NCBI GenBank assembly: GCA_963751455.1
Contig: CAVVUN010000015.1
Span: forward strand, 672,001 to 736,000
Length of the DNA stretch: 64,000 nt
Origin: Nitrospirota bacterium
GTDB taxonomy: Bacteria; Nitrospirota; UBA9217
Reading direction: 5' to 3'
The position numbers were made by a program, and so were the translations under genes. Shown piece by piece: positions 28,721 to 39,899 of the stretch; positions within the stretch are counted from its first letter, which is position 1; each line of letters starts with the position of its first letter. The notes under the pieces were generated by a model. That model searched no databases. It had not been told where the DNA came from and worked only from the letters and a program-made list of their open reading frames with translations.

Positions 28721-29554
28721 ATGAACAATACACCAAATGGAGAGCGCCGCATCCGCAGGCTGGCCGGCCGTGCCATCGGTGACTTCCGGCTTGTCGAGAA
28801 CCATGACCGGATCCTCGTTGCGTTGTCGGGCGGCAAGGACAGTTGGACACTGCTTCATATCCTGCATACTCTGCAAAAACGGGCCCCGGTTGCCTTCTCT
28901 CTTACCGTAGTCACGGTCCACCCCGGCTTTCCCGGTTTTAAGACGGGACTCATCGAAGAATATCTTGAGGCGCATGGGTTCGAGTACCGGGTTGTTCACG
29001 CTCCTATCCACACGCTCATGCTCGAAAAGCTGACGCCGGACGATACGCCTTGTACGCTTTGCGCCAGAATAAAACGCGGCGTGTTGTATACCCAGGCGCG
29101 GGAACTGGACTGCACAAAAGTGGCGCTTGGCCACCACCGGGATGATTTCATCGAGACGCTGCTCCTGAACCAGTTCTATAACGGCAGAATCAAAGCAATG
29201 TCTCCGCTGCTTCGGGCCGATGACGGGCGTACAGTCGTAATCCGGCCTCTTGTGTACGTTCGGGAGGAAGACATTATTCGCTATGCTGCGGACGCGCAAT
29301 TCCCGATTGCGTGCTGCGCCTGCCCGGCCTGCGGCGATCCCGATATGAAACGGATAAAAATAAAAAACCTTCTTGCGGTGCTTGACCGTGAGCAGCCGGG
29401 TATAAAGGCAAGCCTCCTTGCAGCCCTGTCACACATAGACCATCGTCATCTCTTCCCCGAGCGCGGGAACGGGTCCCCTGAGCGTCATGAACACGCGGCA
29501 GAGGGCAGCCGCGCACGGTTTTTTTCTGAAAGTTCAAAGGGGGATTTATCCTGA
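28721..29554 (+). CDS. ttcA: tRNA 2-thiocytidine(32) synthetase
   Basis: PP-loop ALSGGKDS, CTLC.RIKRG.LY, ALGHHRDD..ETLLLN, VIRPL, CxxC. Confidence 0.9.
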   Translation: MNNTPNGERRIRRLAGRAIGDFRLVENHDRILVALSGGKDSWTLLHILHTLQKRAPVAFSLTVVTVHPGFPGFKTGLIEEYLEAHGFEYRVVHAPIHTLMLEKLTPDDTPCTLCARIKRGVLYTQARELDCTKVALGHHRDDFIETLLLNQFYNGRIKAMSPLLRADDGRTVVIRPLVYVREEDIIRYAADAQFPIACCACPACGDPDMKRIKIKNLLAVLDREQPGIKASLLAALSHIDHRHLFPERGNGSPERHEHAAEGSRARFFSESSKGDLS

Positions 29555-29751
29555 AAAAAGCAGTTGGACACGGATAAAATCTGATCAACACGGATTTATA
29601 GGAAGTTACGAACAGTAATGGATTCACCCAAAAGGCGAGATGGCTTTTTGCTCTATCACATTGTTTTGATCCGCTGTTTCCGTGTTCATCCGTGTTCAAA
29701 TGCCGTTTTTAGGTTTATAGAACCACTCTCACCCGCAATCCGAACTTTCCG

Positions 29752-29781
29752 TTGACATCTCCGAGGAATGAAGCATATAAT
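29752..29781 (+). promoter_or_regulatory. sigma70 promoter
   Basis: TTGACA-18-TATAAT upstream of the gene at 29864. Confidence 0.7.
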
Positions 29782-29863
29782 CGCATGACAGAGAGAAATG
29801 GTTCACCGACGCACTGCAATTTGACGCAGTAAGCATTTAAACTGCTTTGACCAGGAGGCCTCT

Positions 29864-30562
29864 ATGGCCGAGACCAAAAAGCTCGGGGAGCTTTTGAAGG
29901 AAGCAGGATTGATCGACGATTACCAACTGCAGTCGGCTCTTGCACACCAGCGCAATTGGGGCGGAAAATTGGGCTCCGTTCTTGTTGAAATGGGTTTCGT
30001 TCGCGAACCGGACGTAGCGCAGGTGCTGGCGGAAAAGTTCAGGATGCCGTACGCTGATCTTTTCGAGCCTGAAATCCCGCTGTCCACGATCAGGCTGATC
30101 AAACCGGATGTGGCCAAAAAATACAACGTTATACCGGTCAAAAAGGAAAGCACCGGACTTATTGTCGCCATGGCCGACCCGCTCGACATTGATGTCGTCG
30201 ACGCAATTCGTTTTGCAACCGGGCTAAAAATTAAACCGGCTCTCGCCCTTGAATCGGAGATCAGGGACGCCATTGCGAAATATTATGAGGGCAAGGCGAT
30301 CTCTCGGAAGCCGTCCGTCCCGGTGCTGGAGATGGCGCAGAACGCGCTGTCAGAACGAGAGCCCCCCGGCGGTGTGGAGCCCTCTCATGCCGGGAATGCG
30401 GATCCGGAAGCTAAGGCGTCAGCCGGCGAAAAATCCGAGGAGCCTGCGTCTCAGGACTATAAGGTCCGGGTGGACGCGCTCGTCAATCTCCTGATTGAGA
30501 AGGGGCTCATAAAACGTGAAGAATTTATGGCACGGATCTCCGGTGAAAAAATCGGACAGTGA
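29864..30562 (+). CDS. Stand-alone MshEN/T2SSE_N domain protein (putative c-di-GMP receptor)
   Basis: KLGELLKEAGLI...QL..AL..Q...KLGSVLVEMGFV, AMADPLD; no ATPase domain. Confidence 0.82.
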   Translation: MAETKKLGELLKEAGLIDDYQLQSALAHQRNWGGKLGSVLVEMGFVREPDVAQVLAEKFRMPYADLFEPEIPLSTIRLIKPDVAKKYNVIPVKKESTGLIVAMADPLDIDVVDAIRFATGLKIKPALALESEIRDAIAKYYEGKAISRKPSVPVLEMAQNALSEREPPGGVEPSHAGNADPEAKASAGEKSEEPASQDYKVRVDALVNLLIEKGLIKREEFMARISGEKIGQ

Positions 30563-30627
30563 AGAGCGCTCATGAAAAATACCGGATGTTATCGCAATAG
30601 GGATTTCGATTCAAAAGGGGTATCGCA

Positions 30628-31023
30628 ATGCTTAAAATAGCGGTTGCAGTTCTGTGTACGGCGCTGCTGGCAGCAGGCGGGTTGTCGGCCGAAGATCTCG
30701 GGGGTGGACCGAAGATCGTTGTAAAAGAAACGCGCTTCGATCTGGGAAATGTCCAGGAGGGCTCGCAGGCGACGCATACCTTCGAGTTCCGGAACGCCGG
30801 CAACCAGACTCTGGTGATCGAGCGGATCCAGCCCTCCTGAGGGTGTACTGCCGCGGTGATTAGTTCTAATCGCCTGGAACCGGGAGCAGCGGGTCAGATC
30901 AAGGCATCCGTCGATACAGCGGGCAGAGCCGGACATCTGGAAAAACATATAGCAGTATATTCCAATGACAGGCAGACGCCCGTGGTTACCCTTTCATTGA
31001 GTATGACTATCCTGCAAAAGTAA
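30628..31023 (+). CDS. DUF1573 exported protein with in-frame TGA, probable selenoprotein (S-U-G-C-T)
   Basis: FEFRNAGNQTLVIERIQPS-TGA(30838)-GCTAAVISSNRLEPG...IAVYSND..TP, ending at TAA 31021-31023; SECIS-like hairpin at 30855-30874. Confidence 0.85.
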
Positions 31024-31465
31024 CCCGGAAAAGCATTGAGCCTGGGAGGAAATGCAGAGCTACGGCATTTCCTGCCTGGCAAGCGATCCGGGCGGAAAAG
31101 ACGATTTCCGTCTTCGAGGCCCCTGCCGCACTATTTCCTTGACAATTTTCTTCGGCTTGTGCTAACCTTTAGCCGTTTTTGGCCTGACTTGTCCCGGCAG
31201 CTATCTGAAGAGGAGTACGCGAAGCGTCTCGGCCAGGAACGGGGTCTTTCGGCGCCTGCCGTGGCCCGACCGAGTTTTAAGAAAAGAGGCAATACATACC
31301 TTGAAACAGCACAGACACCCGCAATACCCCAGCGACACGCCAACCCCGGGCATAGGTCCCGCCCCGGCGGGACTTTAATTTCTTCGCATACACTCAAGCG
31401 TCTTGATCTGTTCAGCTGTTACGTTAGATAATCCGATCGATTTCGTGATTTTGGAGGGAATATTC

Positions 31466-32602
31466 ATGCAAAAAAAATATCTCTTGGCCCCCGGGCCGAC
31501 GCCTGTTCCGCCTGAAGCGCTCCTGGCGATGGCCATGCCGATTATTCATCACCGTGCCCCGGATTTTTTGCCGGTGCTCGAATCGGCAAAAAAGGGCCTT
31601 CAATGGCTTTACCAGACGAAGAACGACGTGCTGATCCTTTGCTCCACCGGCACGGGCGGCATGGTCGGTTCCGTCACCAACTTTTTGAGCCCTGGCGACG
31701 ACGTCCTTGTTATTAACGGCGGAAAGTTCGGCGAACGATGGACAAAGATCTGCCAGGCCTACGGTATGAAGGTTGAGGAACTGCTGGTGGAATGGGGCAA
31801 TGCGGTTAAATCCGAACAGGTGGAGGCCGCCCTCAAGAAGAACCCGAAGATCAAGGCAGTCTTCGTGCAGGCAAACGAAACATCAACCGGTGTGTACCAT
31901 GATGTAAAGTCCGTTGCCGCGGTCGTCAAAAAGACCGACGCTCTGTTTGTCGTTGATGCGATATCGGCGCTTGTGGCCCATGATATAAGGACTGACGAGT
32001 GGGGAATCGACGTGATGGTGGGCGGGTCCCAGAAGGGCGTCATGCTGCCCCCAGGCCTTGCCTTTGTCTCCGTAAGCGACAAGGCATGGAAGGCTGCGGA
32101 TACGGCAAAAACCCCGAAGTTCTATTTCAACTTTAAAAAAGAGCGTGAGAACCTTGCAAAGAACCAGACGAACTTCACGTCCGCAGTTACGTTGATCATC
32201 GGCTTGAACGCTTCGATCAAGATGCTCCAGGCAGAGGGGCTTGACAACGTTTTTGCACGTCACGAAAAGCTGGCAAAAGCGACCCGCGCGGCAGCAGCGG
32301 CGCTTGGTCTCAAGCTCTTTCCGAAGGAAAGCCCGAGCAACGCGCTCACTGCTATCGAAGCGCCGGCAGGCGTGGACGGCCAGGCAATATATAAGAACCT
32401 CAGGGAGAAGTACGGTATAACGGGAGCAGGCGGCCAGGATAAGCTCAAGGGCAAGATATTCCGGATCGCGCACCTCGGATATGCAGACACATTCGATGTG
32501 ATCACCGCGGTTGCAGGCATCGAGATGGTCCTGAAAGGCCTGGGGCACCCCGTCAAGCTCGGAACCGGCGTGGCAGCCGCCGAAGAAATATTGATGAAGT
32601 AA
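31466..32602 (+). CDS. Class V PLP aminotransferase (alanine-glyoxylate/phosphoserine type)
   Basis: PGPTPVP, NETSTGV, VVDAIS, GSQKG..LPPGL, FRIAHLG; directly upstream of serA. Confidence 0.9.
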   Translation: MQKKYLLAPGPTPVPPEALLAMAMPIIHHRAPDFLPVLESAKKGLQWLYQTKNDVLILCSTGTGGMVGSVTNFLSPGDDVLVINGGKFGERWTKICQAYGMKVEELLVEWGNAVKSEQVEAALKKNPKIKAVFVQANETSTGVYHDVKSVAAVVKKTDALFVVDAISALVAHDIRTDEWGIDVMVGGSQKGVMLPPGLAFVSVSDKAWKAADTAKTPKFYFNFKKERENLAKNQTNFTSAVTLIIGLNASIKMLQAEGLDNVFARHEKLAKATRAAAAALGLKLFPKESPSNALTAIEAPAGVDGQAIYKNLREKYGITGAGGQDKLKGKIFRIAHLGYADTFDVITAVAGIEMVLKGLGHPVKLGTGVAAAEEILMK

Positions 32603-35691: not shown

Positions 35692-35850
35692 AACATTAAA
35701 TTCCAAATAACAAGCGCCAAATAACAAATAAGCATCAATAAGCAAGCAAGAAGTTCGGAGTTCAGCAATTTGGATTTAGCAGTGTCCCGTAAATTTTGTT
35801 GCAAAACCGCGGGAACTCTGATAATATACGCGTCTTCGCGTGGAAAACGC

Positions 35851-35926
35851 GGGCCGGTAGCTCAGTTGGTAGAGCACCGCCCTTTTAAGGCGGGTGTCCT
35901 GGGTTCGAGTCCCAGCCGGCTCACCA
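35851..35926 (+). tRNA. tRNA-Lys (TTT)
   Basis: Cloverleaf; anticodon loop CTTTTAA, GGTTCGAGTCC T-arm, CCA end. Confidence 0.96.
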
Positions 35927-35931
35927 CTTCA

Positions 35932-36015
35932 ATTGCGGATTGCAGATTGCGGAATTCGGATTGAAAGAAAAAGTCAGGCAGTTAAATCCGCAATCCGAAA
36001 TCCACAATCCCAAAT
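35932..36015. repeat. Inverted heptamer repeat between the tRNAs
   Basis: ttgcgga ttgcaga ttgcgga attcgga mirrored by aatccgc aatccga aatccac aatccca. Confidence 0.75.
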
Positions 36016-36020
36016 TATAT

Positions 36021-36098
36021 GTCCCCATCGTCTAGCCCGGCCCAGGACACCGCCCTTTCACGGCGATAACGGGGGTTCGAATCCCCCTGGGGACGCCA
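36021..36098 (+). tRNA. tRNA-Glu (TTC), integration target
   Basis: Anticodon loop CTTTCAC, GGTTCGAATCC T-arm, CCA end. Confidence 0.95.
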
Positions 36099-37428
36099 AT
36101 TTACTTCTGTAACCCACGGATTTCTTAATCAGATTTTCCGTGGGTTTTCTTGTTTCTGGCCTGTTGTGAATGTCTTGTGAATGAATTTCTGTAACACTCC
36201 CGCCGTGCATCTTCCGCAGCATCTCTACTGATCGCTGAACATACTTTTTCGACATCCCTGACGTGCTCTGACCGGCCATCATTTCCATGTCCTTCTCACT
36301 GTGCCCGTTGAGTGCGTACTGCGTCATCGTCGTGTGTTTGGTTGCATTGTACACGTTGACATAAGGAACGCCGGCGCGTTTGCAGGCACGCTTCCAGATG
36401 TCATTCACAACCCAGTTGGAATACCGGGTGCCGAGTTCGTTCGGGAAAGCGATCTCTCGACCAAAGCGGCCTTGGAGAATTGAGGTATCAAAGCGAGGAT
36501 GAAGCGGAATCACGTATTCCTTTCGGTTCTTTCTCGTTTTCAGACTTCGATCAAAATCCAGACTATTCTCAATCCAGACGGTCATTGCCTTCAAATCGAA
36601 GTGCCGCACATCCAGGGCGCAGGCCTCGGACGGCCGCACAGGATGCTTAATGAGAAAGTCGATAATCGCATGATGAACCGGGTTCGTGATAGAAGCGAAC
36701 GCCTTGTCCCGGTCCTCGATCGGCATGACGCGAACCAGCTTCTCGCTGAGTACAATCGGGTCGAAGATCGGAACGATGAAATCACGCTTCATTTTGTGGA
36801 GCCAGTTACAGAAGCCGCGGAGCTGATCCATCACGTTCTTGACCGCCTTATCTGAAAGCGGCTGATCTTTATGGCCTCCGAATGGGATCCGGTATACCTC
36901 AACGAGGTGCTTCTGGAAGCGGGCGATGTCCATTGTCTCGATCTCGAGCATGTTCCGTTCGCTGAAGAATGGGATGAAATGATCCTCGCAATACTGCTCG
37001 ATCTTTCGAATATAGGAGAGCGCCCGTTTCGGTTTCCTCGAGCGAATGTCGCTCAGCCAGGTGATTTTATCAGGCCCGGGATCTGCCGTTTGAAAAAGGA
37101 ACTTCCCTTTGTATTCGTCCAGCTCAGAAGCAAGGTATTTTCTGATATCGAACCGCCGATGCTCAGTCTTGCACACGTCAAGATCGGTTCGGATACTCTC
37201 AATGACTCCATAGGCGAGACTATAACTCGAGAACATATGCCCGGTCTTGTAATACCGGCTGATCACGTAGGGCTTGTGGGTGACTTTATCGTAAAAGAAG
37301 ATGTAGACCTTATCGGGTTTTGTTTGGCAGGTAGGACATATTAAAGCAGGTGCTTTTCCGACAAAGAGCTCCTTGAACTTTCCGGCGCAGACAGGACACA
37401 CTTCGCGGGTACGGACTTGTCCGCTCAT
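36058..37428 (-). CDS. Tyrosine integrase with N-terminal CxxC/CxxC zinc ribbon; reads through attL into the tRNA
   Basis: VRPSEACAL (Arg I), K, YNATKH, MAGQS, KKY; GGAGG RBS before ATG 37428. Confidence 0.88.
   Translation of the reverse strand: MSGQVRTREVCPVCAGKFKELFVGKAPALICPTCQTKPDKVYIFFYDKVTHKPYVISRYYKTGHMFSSYSLAYGVIESIRTDLDVCKTEHRRFDIRKYLASELDEYKGKFLFQTADPGPDKITWLSDIRSRKPKRALSYIRKIEQYCEDHFIPFFSERNMLEIETMDIARFQKHLVEVYRIPFGGHKDQPLSDKAVKNVMDQLRGFCNWLHKMKRDFIVPIFDPIVLSEKLVRVMPIEDRDKAFASITNPVHHAIIDFLIKHPVRPSEACALDVRHFDLKAMTVWIENSLDFDRSLKTRKNRKEYVIPLHPRFDTSILQGRFGREIAFPNELGTRYSNWVVNDIWKRACKRAGVPYVNVYNATKHTTMTQYALNGHSEKDMEMMAGQSTSGMSKKYVQRSVEMLRKMHGGSVTEIHSQDIHNRPETRKPTENLIKKSVGYRSKLASPGGFEPPLSP
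36164..36185 (+). repeat. Arm-type integrase-binding repeat (left)
   Basis: TTGTGAATGTCTTGTGAATGAA; copy with one mismatch at 56075-56096. Confidence 0.75.
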
Positions 37429-37666
37429 GTTATGGCCCCCCTCCTCAGTCTTCTGGTGGGGGTGATTGTAGGCTATGTCCACGCCTAAAGTCAAGCTGCC
37501 GTCCTCGATTGTCCTCAACCGCACTGGATTTGGAATCCAGCGGGGGATTTTAGAAATCGCAAATTCAAAGAGTTACGACCCTTATGCCACCTGTATGCTC
37601 GCGACCTTTTTACTGAAACCCGCTGGCCATTCGCCGTAATTACCGTCCATCTTTCAATATTGAGTT

Positions 37667-39223
37667 CTAGACGGTTCTATCCGACCCTATCACCTGTGAA
37701 GTTGCACCCAGCTGTATGAGCGCCTGGTTTGCATTGAGTGCTCCGGCGATCGCGGTAGCCCAGATGTTACCGCCGGCCTTCGCAGTATCAGCTCTGATCT
37801 CCATTGACGCGATAAGCGCCCTCACCGCCAATTGGGCCTGCTGCGCAAGTATCTGCGTCTGGAACTCAGCTGCCCCTTTCGTAAGTCCTGCGACGGCCAC
37901 CCCGACATCCGCACGCGCCTTCTGCAGTCCGACCTCTGCCGAGTACGCCCCGACCTTGGCCCCGAACGCAGAACCTTTCGCGGCTATCACCGAGGCAAGC
38001 CCTTCGGCCTTGGCTTTGAGCGCCTGCATATACGAGTCGAATTGCTTTAAGATAGCCATGTTCTTCTCTGCCGTGGCCTTGAGTTTTTCAACCTGCATCA
38101 TGGCGTCCGTTTTAGCGTATTCAAGGCTGAGTCCGTAATCGGTCTTTTCCTTGTCAAGCTTGGCCGTAAACGCCTTTAAAAGCATCTCGTTCTTGGAAAT
38201 CTGATGCCCTAAAAGGGCAAGCTGCACATCAGCAGCCTTTATGAGCGCCGATACCCGTGCAGCATACTTGGATATCCATGCGTTATAGAAGCCGAGAGAA
38301 AATTCGAAGACCGACCGCATGGCCGTCAGCGCCCGATTCTTCACCTGGTCGTAATGCTGGACCTCGACAGCCAGGACCTGAAGCATGCTCGACGTGGTGA
38401 ACTGCTGGTTCTGCAGGCTCATCTTTGCCTGGTCTTCGGCTACCGACCGGGACTCGTCCATTTTCTTATACCCATACTCGGTTTCGAATGCAGTGACTGT
38501 CTGTTTAAGAGTGCCCTGCGGCAGATCCCACCCAAAACGCGCATGATCATCGGCCATCTTCACGACCGTACGCTGCCGGATAAGTTCGTCACGCTCGGAC
38601 ATCCGATCCCATATCTGTCGCTCAACCGTGGGGTTGATACCCGTTACGCCGGCGGCCATGTCCGCAGTAAGCTTCGCATAGAGTGCGGTTGCGCTTATTG
38701 ACGAAAGGCTCTCGTTCTCTGCCTGGTATAGGCTGTCCTTATACGAGGTGATCGCGTCCTGGATAACGGTCATATCGTCCGACATCTTGATATCATTAAG
38801 GCTATCGGGATCAAAAAGGTCATCCGGGTTCGGTAAATCGATTTCTTTAAAATCCTTCAGGTCTTCCGTTGTCGGCGGCGCGTCGACTGTCTTGATATTA
38901 AGTGAGTCGTACGGATCCAGCGTGCCAGAAGGAGTTGGCGGCGTAGCACCGTTAAAGTCAATAGCTCCGATCTGCGACTCCTGCTGTGCGGTGTCAAGAT
39001 TGGCCCGGACAGTAATCGTCGTTCTGGGGTCGCTGATCAGCGTCTCCGGACTCGGCGGCGTCCATTGAAGCGCCGGAATCTCTACATTCGGCAGGAATAA
39101 TGAGGTTGATATCTGCTGCAGGGCTGACAGAAACTGCGCTGCGTTATCTACGTTTTCCGTTACATTCTGGTTGAGCGTTGCAAGCCGCTCGCTAACCGCC
39201 GCATTGACTTCTTCAACTGACAT
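37667..39223 (-). CDS. ~520-aa Ala-rich coiled-coil protein, possibly virion-associated
   Basis: Long helical ORF with GGAGG RBS, downstream of the terS-like gene; function is inferred only. Confidence 0.55.
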   Translation of the reverse strand: MSVEEVNAAVSERLATLNQNVTENVDNAAQFLSALQQISTSLFLPNVEIPALQWTPPSPETLISDPRTTITVRANLDTAQQESQIGAIDFNGATPPTPSGTLDPYDSLNIKTVDAPPTTEDLKDFKEIDLPNPDDLFDPDSLNDIKMSDDMTVIQDAITSYKDSLYQAENESLSSISATALYAKLTADMAAGVTGINPTVERQIWDRMSERDELIRQRTVVKMADDHARFGWDLPQGTLKQTVTAFETEYGYKKMDESRSVAEDQAKMSLQNQQFTTSSMLQVLAVEVQHYDQVKNRALTAMRSVFEFSLGFYNAWISKYAARVSALIKAADVQLALLGHQISKNEMLLKAFTAKLDKEKTDYGLSLEYAKTDAMMQVEKLKATAEKNMAILKQFDSYMQALKAKAEGLASVIAAKGSAFGAKVGAYSAEVGLQKARADVGVAVAGLTKGAAEFQTQILAQQAQLAVRALIASMEIRADTAKAGGNIWATAIAGALNANQALIQLGATSQVIGSDRTV

Positions 39224-39629
39224 ATACACCTCCATTTAATGTTGCGTTTTGTTAACATCTTCAGCCTTACTCAACGGGTCCGACGCGCTGCCAGGCAACC
39301 CGCTACTGCCCATGTCATCTAGGCAATAAATCTGAGATTTTCACATGAACTATATTTAGCTGCGACCTTAACAAACCTTAACAACCTCACTGCTTCAAGA
39401 GTCGGAACGTTAGCTTTTGTTAACAGGCCATTGGTTTCCGACCATTTCAGACAAAGGCGACTTGATCCCTGGTTGCGAGCCGTACACGATTCCACATCTT
39501 CTCGATAAAAATATCGGTAAATATCGGTTTCAAAGCTCACTAAGTCGAGAATCTTTCACGTTAATTTCGTGGCAACGAGTTTTAAACAATGCGGCCAGTG
39601 ACTCTCCAAAGTGTCGGTTTTTCTCCGGG

Positions 39630-39899
39630 TCAGTCCTCGTTTCCCACCTTGTCCGACTTCCCGATGAAAGCAAGCTCTTCGTCGGTCACATGCATTCCTT
39701 TTCGGAGATAACCTTCGATCAACGCTCTCCGTACCCGCGGTCTGTTCCGGACCAGGCATTGCTTGCTGCGCGCAGTTGATCTCTTGTAGCCGGCATCCAG
39801 CATAGCGCCCGTATAACACTCGCCGTCGAGAAGGGCCTGCACGAGCTTCCGCTCTTTTTCGGAGAGGGTCTCAATTGTCTTGGGTTTGTCATTGACCAT
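39630..39899 (-). CDS. Terminase small subunit-like HTH protein
   Basis: LSEKERKLV..LL.G...T.AM.DAGY...TA resembles the TerS N-terminal LTxKQ..F...AA..AGYS..TA pattern; GAGG RBS. Confidence 0.55.
   Translation of the reverse strand: MVNDKPKTIETLSEKERKLVQALLDGECYTGAMLDAGYKRSTARSKQCLVRNRPRVRRALIEGYLRKGMHVTDEELAFIGKSDKVGNED

Follow-up and report, generated by a model that had tools for sequence, protein, structure and literature searches.

The locus and its product

The stretch of DNA analysed here, a 64-kb window, comes from a genome that we call G000; positions on its contigs C1, C2 and C13 are given with the contig name, and all other coordinates are those of the window. Translation of positions 30628-31023 gives 70 residues, a TGA at 30838-30840, and then 60 further residues that begin with G-C-T and end at a TAA. 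The features of the locus are as follows.

29752-29781, + strand: sigma-70-type promoter match (12/12) upstream of the MshEN gene, a match to the consensus only
29864-30562, + strand: gene encoding an MshEN protein that has a c-di-GMP-binding motif, a conserved neighbour (PF05157; NF053729, 73.7 bits against a cut-off of 38)
30615-30620, + strand: Shine-Dalgarno-like AAGGGG, 7 nt 5' of the ATG, as read from the sequence
30628-31023, + strand: full coding sequence, 131 aa, with the recoded codon as residue 71 (S70-U71-G72-C73-T74), from translation, Pfam and orthologs
30628-30690, + strand: residues 1-21, a likely cleavable signal peptide (basic residues first, then a hydrophobic core, then small residues ahead of E22)
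30718-30987, + strand: DUF1573 (PF07610) domain, residues 31-120, a predicted PapD/ASH-like beta-sandwich (Pfam profile, structure model)
30838-30840, + strand: TGA, in frame, where the C-G-C motif of the family has its first Cys (TGA in 30/30 orthologs, a Cys codon in 63 other homologous domains)
30844-30846, + strand: Cys73, predicted resolving partner of Sec71 (invariant in 102/102 aligned domains)
30855-30874, + strand: bacterial SECIS hairpin with 7 conserved pairs, an AGUUCN loop and the loop G at +23 (folding, ortholog covariation)

The initial annotation had noted that the TGA occupies, in frame, the first Cys position of the SCGCT motif of DUF1573 proteins, had described the frame as open for 60 codons beyond it with family-like sequence, and had called the product a hidden, Ig-like protein with a U-G-C motif. 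Translation, alignment to PF07610 and the structure model bear out this description. The read-through protein scores 94.6 bits against PF07610 (gathering cut-off 26.1), and its two halves are contiguous on the profile, with positions 2-41 matched before the TGA, positions 43-91 after it, and the TGA itself at position 42. It thereby combines a Pfam score above the gathering cut-off with the S-U-G-C-T motif, as the catalogued DUF1573 selenoproteins do. NCBIfam model NF041425, for the OS_HP2 family, gives 81 bits (E 6.4e-23, U scored as C) and its cut-off of 100 is not reached; the gene is a relative of that subfamily that is not filed under the model. The protein is also hidden in the literal sense, as the protein collection that was searched contains a 70-aa stub and lacks the read-through product. 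By inspection, the N-terminus is hydrophobic in the 131-aa protein and in its orthologs, and export is predicted from this N-terminal sequence, which is similar across the orthologs.

The gene order around the locus is ttcA, the MshEN gene, the selenoprotein gene, a serC-like aminotransferase gene and serA. The MshEN gene lies upstream in 27 of 30 loci, with two of the three misses cut by contig ends, and the two genes, 65 nt apart, are likely on the same transcript. The MshEN protein is 232 aa long and has an N-terminal MshEN c-di-GMP motif, with no ATPase domain matched. No redox genes were found within 1.5 kb of the gene or of its 29 orthologs.

Two other elements of the window deserve mention in their own right. 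A conserved upstream ORF of 25 codons (31301-31378, + strand) precedes the serC-like aminotransferase gene and serA. It has a TTG or GTG start behind a GAGGC ribosome-binding site, is Pro/His-rich with a core of HRHPQYP, and is present in all 26 loci that reach the aminotransferase gene, with a 1-nt deletion in one copy (L023). Its variation by codon position is 0.047/0.082/0.147, highest at position 3, and it overlaps a terminator-like hairpin (31354-31375) that has no Rfam match; it is a candidate leader-peptide attenuator of serine biosynthesis. Further downstream, a tRNA-like region near 35800-36050 is followed by an integrase-like ORF (36058-37524, - strand) and phage-like ORFs, over 36058-39899; to judge from the translations, this is probably a prophage edge.

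Conservation of the TGA codon

A six-frame search of 61 genomes gave matches in 46, and the best match contains the TGA in 35 of these and is without it in 11. The 35 genomes are G000, all 32 same-family relatives with a match, and members of two other families; the closest named relatives are Nitrospirota metagenome-assembled genomes. The aligned codon is TGA in all 30 of the top orthologs inspected, with 59-80 open codons after each, and is a Cys codon in 63 other homologous domains, so the alignment of homologs that the initial annotation had proposed as a check comes out in its favour. Both Cys positions of the motif are invariant in an alignment of 102 domains. One feature by which bacterial selenoprotein genes are recognized is a UGA in frame at a position where homologs have a conserved Cys, and this gene has it. 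A close Cys ortholog exists at 52% identity (P0046), and two Sec-capable genomes (G037 and G046) keep Cys. The same bacterial family has a second, divergent Sec-DUF1573 subfamily (L058, L059 and L064), with a SECIS that is different and equally paired.

Profile and six-frame searches gave thousands of homologs; a word-index search returned 45 candidates with none at E <= 0.001 and was uninformative. Among the sequencing runs searched, no RNA run was listed for the sequence, none shared half of its words, and source reads of G000 were not found. Three runs that were inspected show only contigs of relatives, some of which begin at or just before the TGA, and so do not bear on this base or on selD in G000.

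A covarying SECIS hairpin

The hairpin at 30855-30874 was found as the initial annotation had described it, with the stem GGTGATTA/TAATCGCC, the loop GTTC, and a loop G that is the 23rd base after the TGA. The claimed 8-bp stem needs trimming: seven pairs are conserved, but the eighth, an A-U pair, forms in just 14 of 30 orthologs. The element shared by the orthologs is thus a 7-bp stem with an A-G-U-U-C-N loop. A loop of 4-6 nt, a stem of 7-8 bp, a spacer of 21-22 nt and energies of -9.2 to -12.1 kcal/mol place the element of this gene within the published bSECIS model, which asks for a loop of 3-9 nt, a stem of 4-16 bp, a G in the first two loop positions, a distance of 16-37 nt from the UGA and an MFE <= -7.5 kcal/mol (PMC13188914). 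Rfam has no match at 29500-31600.

By itself the hairpin is weak evidence, and the case rests on conservation. Folding energy gives z = -3.1 for a 31-nt piece and z near 0 for pieces of 53-100 nt, and 2.5% of 20,000 random G000 TGAs are followed by a stem of at least 8 bp under a loose bSECIS model. A motif-plus-hairpin scan of G000 returned 142 candidates, mostly spurious, and missed both of the DsbA-like TGA genes described below. Given these values in longer windows, this background and these spurious candidates, we did not accept the folding energy of the hairpin by itself as demonstrating a SECIS.

The orthologs are more telling. The covariation alignment took the 30 loci returned by the search, out of the 35 TGA genomes, and 205 of its 210 stem cells are paired (97.6%), against 18-49% in controls with the register slid. 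Double-sided changes occupy 25 cells over three pairs, which none of 500 shuffles reaches: G-C/C-G in 24/6 orthologs, A-U/G-C in 19/11 and U-A/C-G in 18/8. Two of the five covariation measures (pairs with a double change and further pair types) are not above shuffles, and the statistics are inflated by sequence kinship among the orthologs. RNAalifold recovers the same helix unprompted. The changes in the stem alter the protein in step, as V/L (together with the third base of an R/H codon), I/V and N/D; three upstream codons are fixed at third-position G, and Ser in the loop is encoded by AGT in 30/30 orthologs, where Ser codons elsewhere vary.

The divergent Sec paralogs L058, L059 and L064 keep 7/7 pairs with other bases, and among further homologous domains in this register, 8 of 11 with TGA have 7/7 pairs. 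None of 63 Cys domains reaches even 6 pairs in the SECIS register, although these Cys forms are also more distant. On this pattern of sequence conservation the SECIS is real, and the SECIS-like geometry of the initial annotation is upheld by both the covariation and the published constraints.

Selenocysteine machinery and a second UCA tRNA

G000 encodes the machinery for selenocysteine insertion. Its selA (605.8 bits), selB (373.4 bits) and tRNA-Sec (63.2 bits) are all above cut-off; selA and selB are intact open frames, and the tRNA-Sec, on C1, is canonical with G73. The initial annotation had named selA, selB, selC and selD as the genes to look for, and the first three are thus present. Missing Sec machinery, or a TGC or TGT in place of the TGA, would have spoken against that annotation; neither applies, given these genes and the TGA in all 32 same-family relatives with a match. 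The fourth is less clean: the sole selD (L013, C2:129950-130910, + strand) has its own Sec TGA in the motif C-A-G-U with its own 8-bp hairpin, but carries a frameshift near C2:130,520. The break is probably an assembly error, because the assembly also splits 4 of the 130 orthologs that were tested. More broadly, 30 of the 35 TGA genomes gave a selB match, and 33 gave a match to at least one of selB and selD; the remaining two are 63% and 86% complete. Among the 11 Cys-only genomes, selB was not found in nine.

A second Sec-like tRNA lies at G000:C13:3947-4041 (- strand; L002/L173), directly behind yedF and a rhodanese-like gene; in G031, its counterpart adjoins selD. It has the anticodon UCA, U73, G1:C72 and an 8-bp acceptor stem, the eighth pair of which was read by eye where ARAGORN drew seven, and so has the features that define selC* (U73, a UCA or GCA anticodon, an 8-bp acceptor and a long variable arm). 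Eleven copies of this type were found, in G000 and 10 of 36 family relatives, all with UCA and U73. Neither a second selB nor a second cysS was found in G000, which has one of each. According to passages of PMC5389517, selC* has been reported in Nitrospirae. Neither the frameshift in selD nor the selC*-type tRNA figured in the initial annotation. Because of them, insertion of Cys in place of Sec retains some plausibility, and on the features of this tRNA it is possible as a back-up at UGA in G000.

These observations allow the readings of the TGA to be weighed. If translation really ended there, or if the TGA were a pseudogene lesion or an error of sequencing, the 70-aa product at which gene callers end would be the real one, and hairpins of this size are common enough by chance; but the same TGA recurs in 35 genomes, the coding sequence downstream of it is conserved, the stem covaries, and termination would cut the predicted beta-sandwich in half. 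This reading is already contradicted by conservation, and we give it almost no weight; the codon is very likely read through. Less remote, yet still improbable, is that the codon in G000 is read mainly as Cys by the selC*-type tRNA, yielding a C-G-C protein. The identity elements of the C13 tRNA, its position behind yedF, the retention of UCA and U73 in all copies and the frameshift in selD would all suit this reading, and in E. coli, tRNAs of this type were reported to insert Cys at UGA (PMC5389517). Against it stand the canonical G73 tRNA-Sec with intact selA and selB, the single selB and cysS, the possibility that the selD break is an error, and the lack of such a tRNA in most TGA genomes when sought with the same query. 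Moreover, all the genomes with such tRNAs had the full Sec apparatus in the account of PMC5389517, which fits a back-up role. We consider it very probable that the codon is read as selenocysteine rather than cysteine in G000.

The selenoprotein call itself is ordinary. What it adds is a corrected annotation for a gene that is annotated too short throughout one bacterial family, together with a clean, covarying SECIS.

Predicted fold

We modelled the protein with AlphaFold2, using an alignment of 102 rows in which C stood in for U. The model (pLDDT 95.8) has eight strands and no helix, and is predicted to be a PapD/ASH-like Ig beta-sandwich with the U-G-C in the turn that joins strands 62-69 and 74-78. 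The best structural match is 2QSV (Z 15.3, rmsd 1.9 A over 103 residues), and HYDIN (2E6J, 2YS4), VesB (4LK4) and CEP192 match with Z 11-13. A single-sequence search of the PDB gave no significant match, and the ESM Atlas, queried with the close Cys ortholog P0046, returned DUF1573 clusters only. The fold is silent on redox function because the closest solved structure, 2QSV, is without the C-G-C motif.

Redox genes associated with Cys-type relatives

Evidence on function comes mainly from the company kept by Cys-type homologs, at 27-46% identity, which were picked by short-pattern matching and come from partly related genomes. The Pfam scan covered 66 of the 110 listed homolog and neighbour ORFs, and 33 of 150 representatives were scanned. 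DUF1573 is fused to a diheme cytochrome c (two CxxCH motifs) in 8 of the 11 Cys-only genomes of the phylum, and a DsbA-like gene is directly adjacent in six of the eight; in G046, DUF1573, cytochrome and DsbA share one frame across two contigs that overlap by 121 identical nt. The fusion loci (L049, L051, L052, L054, L062, L063, L056/L144+L150 and L146) belong to three other families of the phylum. The eight genomes (G037, G040, G043, G046, G049, G051, G057 and G059) include none with DsbB or VKOR and one with MauE, so that seven of the eight are without all three, among those searched.

Other phyla show a related pattern. Of 40 loci sampled there (L072-L111), 11 have MauE within their flanks (L072-L074, L076, L078, L081, L087, L089, L095, L097 and L107), and rhodanese accompanies it in 10 of the 11. 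These loci come from Ignavibacteria, Bacteroidota, Planctomycetota and an Opitutaceae genome (Verrucomicrobiota), close kin included. The two-heme fusion recurs in 7 of the 40, and thioredoxin and AhpC/TSA domains also occur as fusions or neighbours among DUF1573 homologs. MauE has been reported to replace DsbB and to need its CGC active site, and about 20% of species are said to be without DsbB, VKOR and MauE, in the parts of the preprint consulted (bioRxiv 10.64898/2026.03.05.709764). No literature joining MauE and DUF1573 was found by a search from which most subscription journals were outside. The Cys-type fusions, together with the MauE and rhodanese neighbours, suggest that a PapD-like fold, rather than a thioredoxin, carries out disulfide exchange in the periplasm; by analogy with these relatives, the G000 protein likely helps to form or shuffle disulfide bonds outside the cytoplasm.

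In G000 itself, neither a fused-cytochrome homolog nor DsbB, VKOR or a clear MauE was found, and a DsbD/CcdA-type gene is present. Two DsbA-like genes (G000:C1:272019, - strand, and C2:302555, + strand) have predicted export signals and a TGA first in the motifs UPYC and UPHC, respectively, and are candidates for further unannotated selenoproteins.

We also considered whether Sec-DUF1573 replaces DsbB in this family. DsbB is present in 9 of 36 family relatives and a divergent VKOR-like protein in 24 of 36 (weak VKOR matches), and several families without DUF1573 are also without DsbB, VKOR and MauE among those searched. The idea is weakened by both observations, and the Sec form is no general DsbB substitute because many same-family relatives carry DsbB or a VKOR-like protein anyway. 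At L163-L166, the divergent VKOR-like protein is fused to a CxxC thioredoxin-like domain; the VKOR-like protein was not found in G000.

Proposed mechanism and alternative functions

Selenocysteine normally takes the place of catalytic cysteines. Its presence at the first Cys of the motif marks that residue as likely catalytic. The reading that we favour, with somewhat better than even confidence, is that of a 131-residue, exported, PapD-like selenoprotein whose presumably exposed Sec-Gly-Cys loop would act as a reversible selenenyl-sulfide in periplasmic thiol-disulfide exchange. SelB with Sec-tRNA would bind the 7-bp hairpin, which lies 22-23 nt beyond the UGA, and would insert Sec71, and the N-terminal peptide would then export the protein. 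The predicted all-beta sandwich would present U71-G72-C73 in the turn between its strands. Sec71 may next attack a disulfide of a partner or substrate, with Cys73 resolving the mixed bond, and the carrier could be returned to its starting state by a DsbA-like protein, a membrane oxidant or a heme oxidant. For this last step we have moderate confidence, drawn from the relatives: in Cys-type forms, recycling would be the task of the fused diheme cytochrome c, the DsbA domain or MauE. Candidates for the partner in G000 are the two DsbA-like UxxC proteins for which export signals are predicted.

Two other roles for the U-G-C turn compete with thiol-disulfide exchange. CxC turns can bind soft metals, and the motif could be a soft-metal or metalloid site (Cu, As, Hg) in a periplasmic metal chaperone or sensor, a possibility encouraged by one Cys-type locus (L055) that lies beside an ArsP-type permease. 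We consider it unlikely, given that no metal-handling gene recurs near the 30 orthologs and that the 66 scanned homolog and neighbour proteins include one such gene, against repeated MauE, DsbA, AhpC, rhodanese and cytochrome c. Less likely again is a Sec-Cys bond that is structural or regulatory, within a PapD-like binding or folding module that takes part in pilus or surface biogenesis together with the c-di-GMP receptor encoded on the same probable transcript. The fold is common to PapD chaperones and ASH domains (Z 9-13), the MshEN gene is a near-constant neighbour (27 of the 30 loci), and many homologs are tandem DUF1573 repeats without another catalytic part. This role sits poorly, however, with the usual substitution of catalytic cysteines by selenocysteine and with the single domain here, where PapD chaperones have two; the MshEN link is also limited to this family, as the Sec copies L050, L053, L058, L059 and L064 have other neighbours.

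Periplasmic thiol-disulfide exchange can be extended into a broader scheme, which we offer as a speculative one. DUF1573 might be the soluble carrier of a non-thioredoxin disulfide pathway not described before, shuttling electrons between DsbA-like proteins or substrates on one side and the fused diheme cytochrome c or MauE on the other, and filling part of the known gap in bacteria without DsbB or VKOR. The G000 gene would then be a selenium-tuned, stand-alone form that is switchable between Sec and Cys at its UGA through the Cys-type UCA tRNA. The functional lead is the worthwhile part of the analysis; the DUF1573 family is very large (20,951 representatives at E <= 0.001) and no function for it appears in the papers found.

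Comparison with known systems

The gene belongs to a predicted selenoprotein family that is already published. OS_HP2 was reported as a selenoprotein family in 2007 (Zhang & Gladyshev, PMC1976440), was tied to pfam07610 with the motif UxC in the 2008 GOS survey (PMC2398784), and is listed as 'DUF1573, UGC' in reviews of 2022 and 2026 (PMC9312934, PMC13188914). The passages of these four papers that we consulted give no function for DUF1573/OS_HP2, and one DUF1573 gene in an iron-responsive table (PMC10434189) is not informative. The G000 gene shares with the catalogued family, as predicted there from sequence, the Pfam domain, a Sec at the first Cys of C-G-C and a downstream bSECIS. It differs in being single-domain, in its own conserved AGUUCN-loop SECIS, in its MshEN/serC synteny and in its score of 81 bits, below the 100 of NF041425.

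The second tRNA of G000 resembles the selC* tRNA-Cys(UCA) of Mukai et al. in its UCA anticodon, U73 and 8-bp acceptor, and departs from it in having G1:C72 rather than A1:U72 and in that the accompanying selB* and cysS* were not found in G000 (PMC5389517).

In its predicted fold, the protein is the same as the PapD-like/ASH Ig domains of 2QSV, HYDIN (2E6J and 2YS4), VesB (4LK4) and CEP192, although 2QSV, unlike the DUF1573 protein, is without C-G-C at the aligned position and shares ~20% sequence identity. With oxidoreductases of the DsbA/DsbC type it would share the role of an exported dithiol/disulfide carrier, and DsbA-like proteins are adjacent to or fused with DUF1573 in the Cys-type relatives. 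Those enzymes have a thioredoxin fold with CxxC at the start of a helix, however, whereas the DUF1573 protein has UxC in a model without a helix, and it does not belong among the thioredoxin-fold oxidoreductases. MauE has as its active site a periplasm-facing C-G-C, like the DUF1573 motif, and its genes lie beside Cys-type DUF1573 in the 11 of 40 loci noted above. MauE is a quinone-linked membrane protein (bioRxiv 10.64898/2026.03.05.709764), in contrast to the soluble, all-beta Sec domain predicted for the DUF1573 protein.
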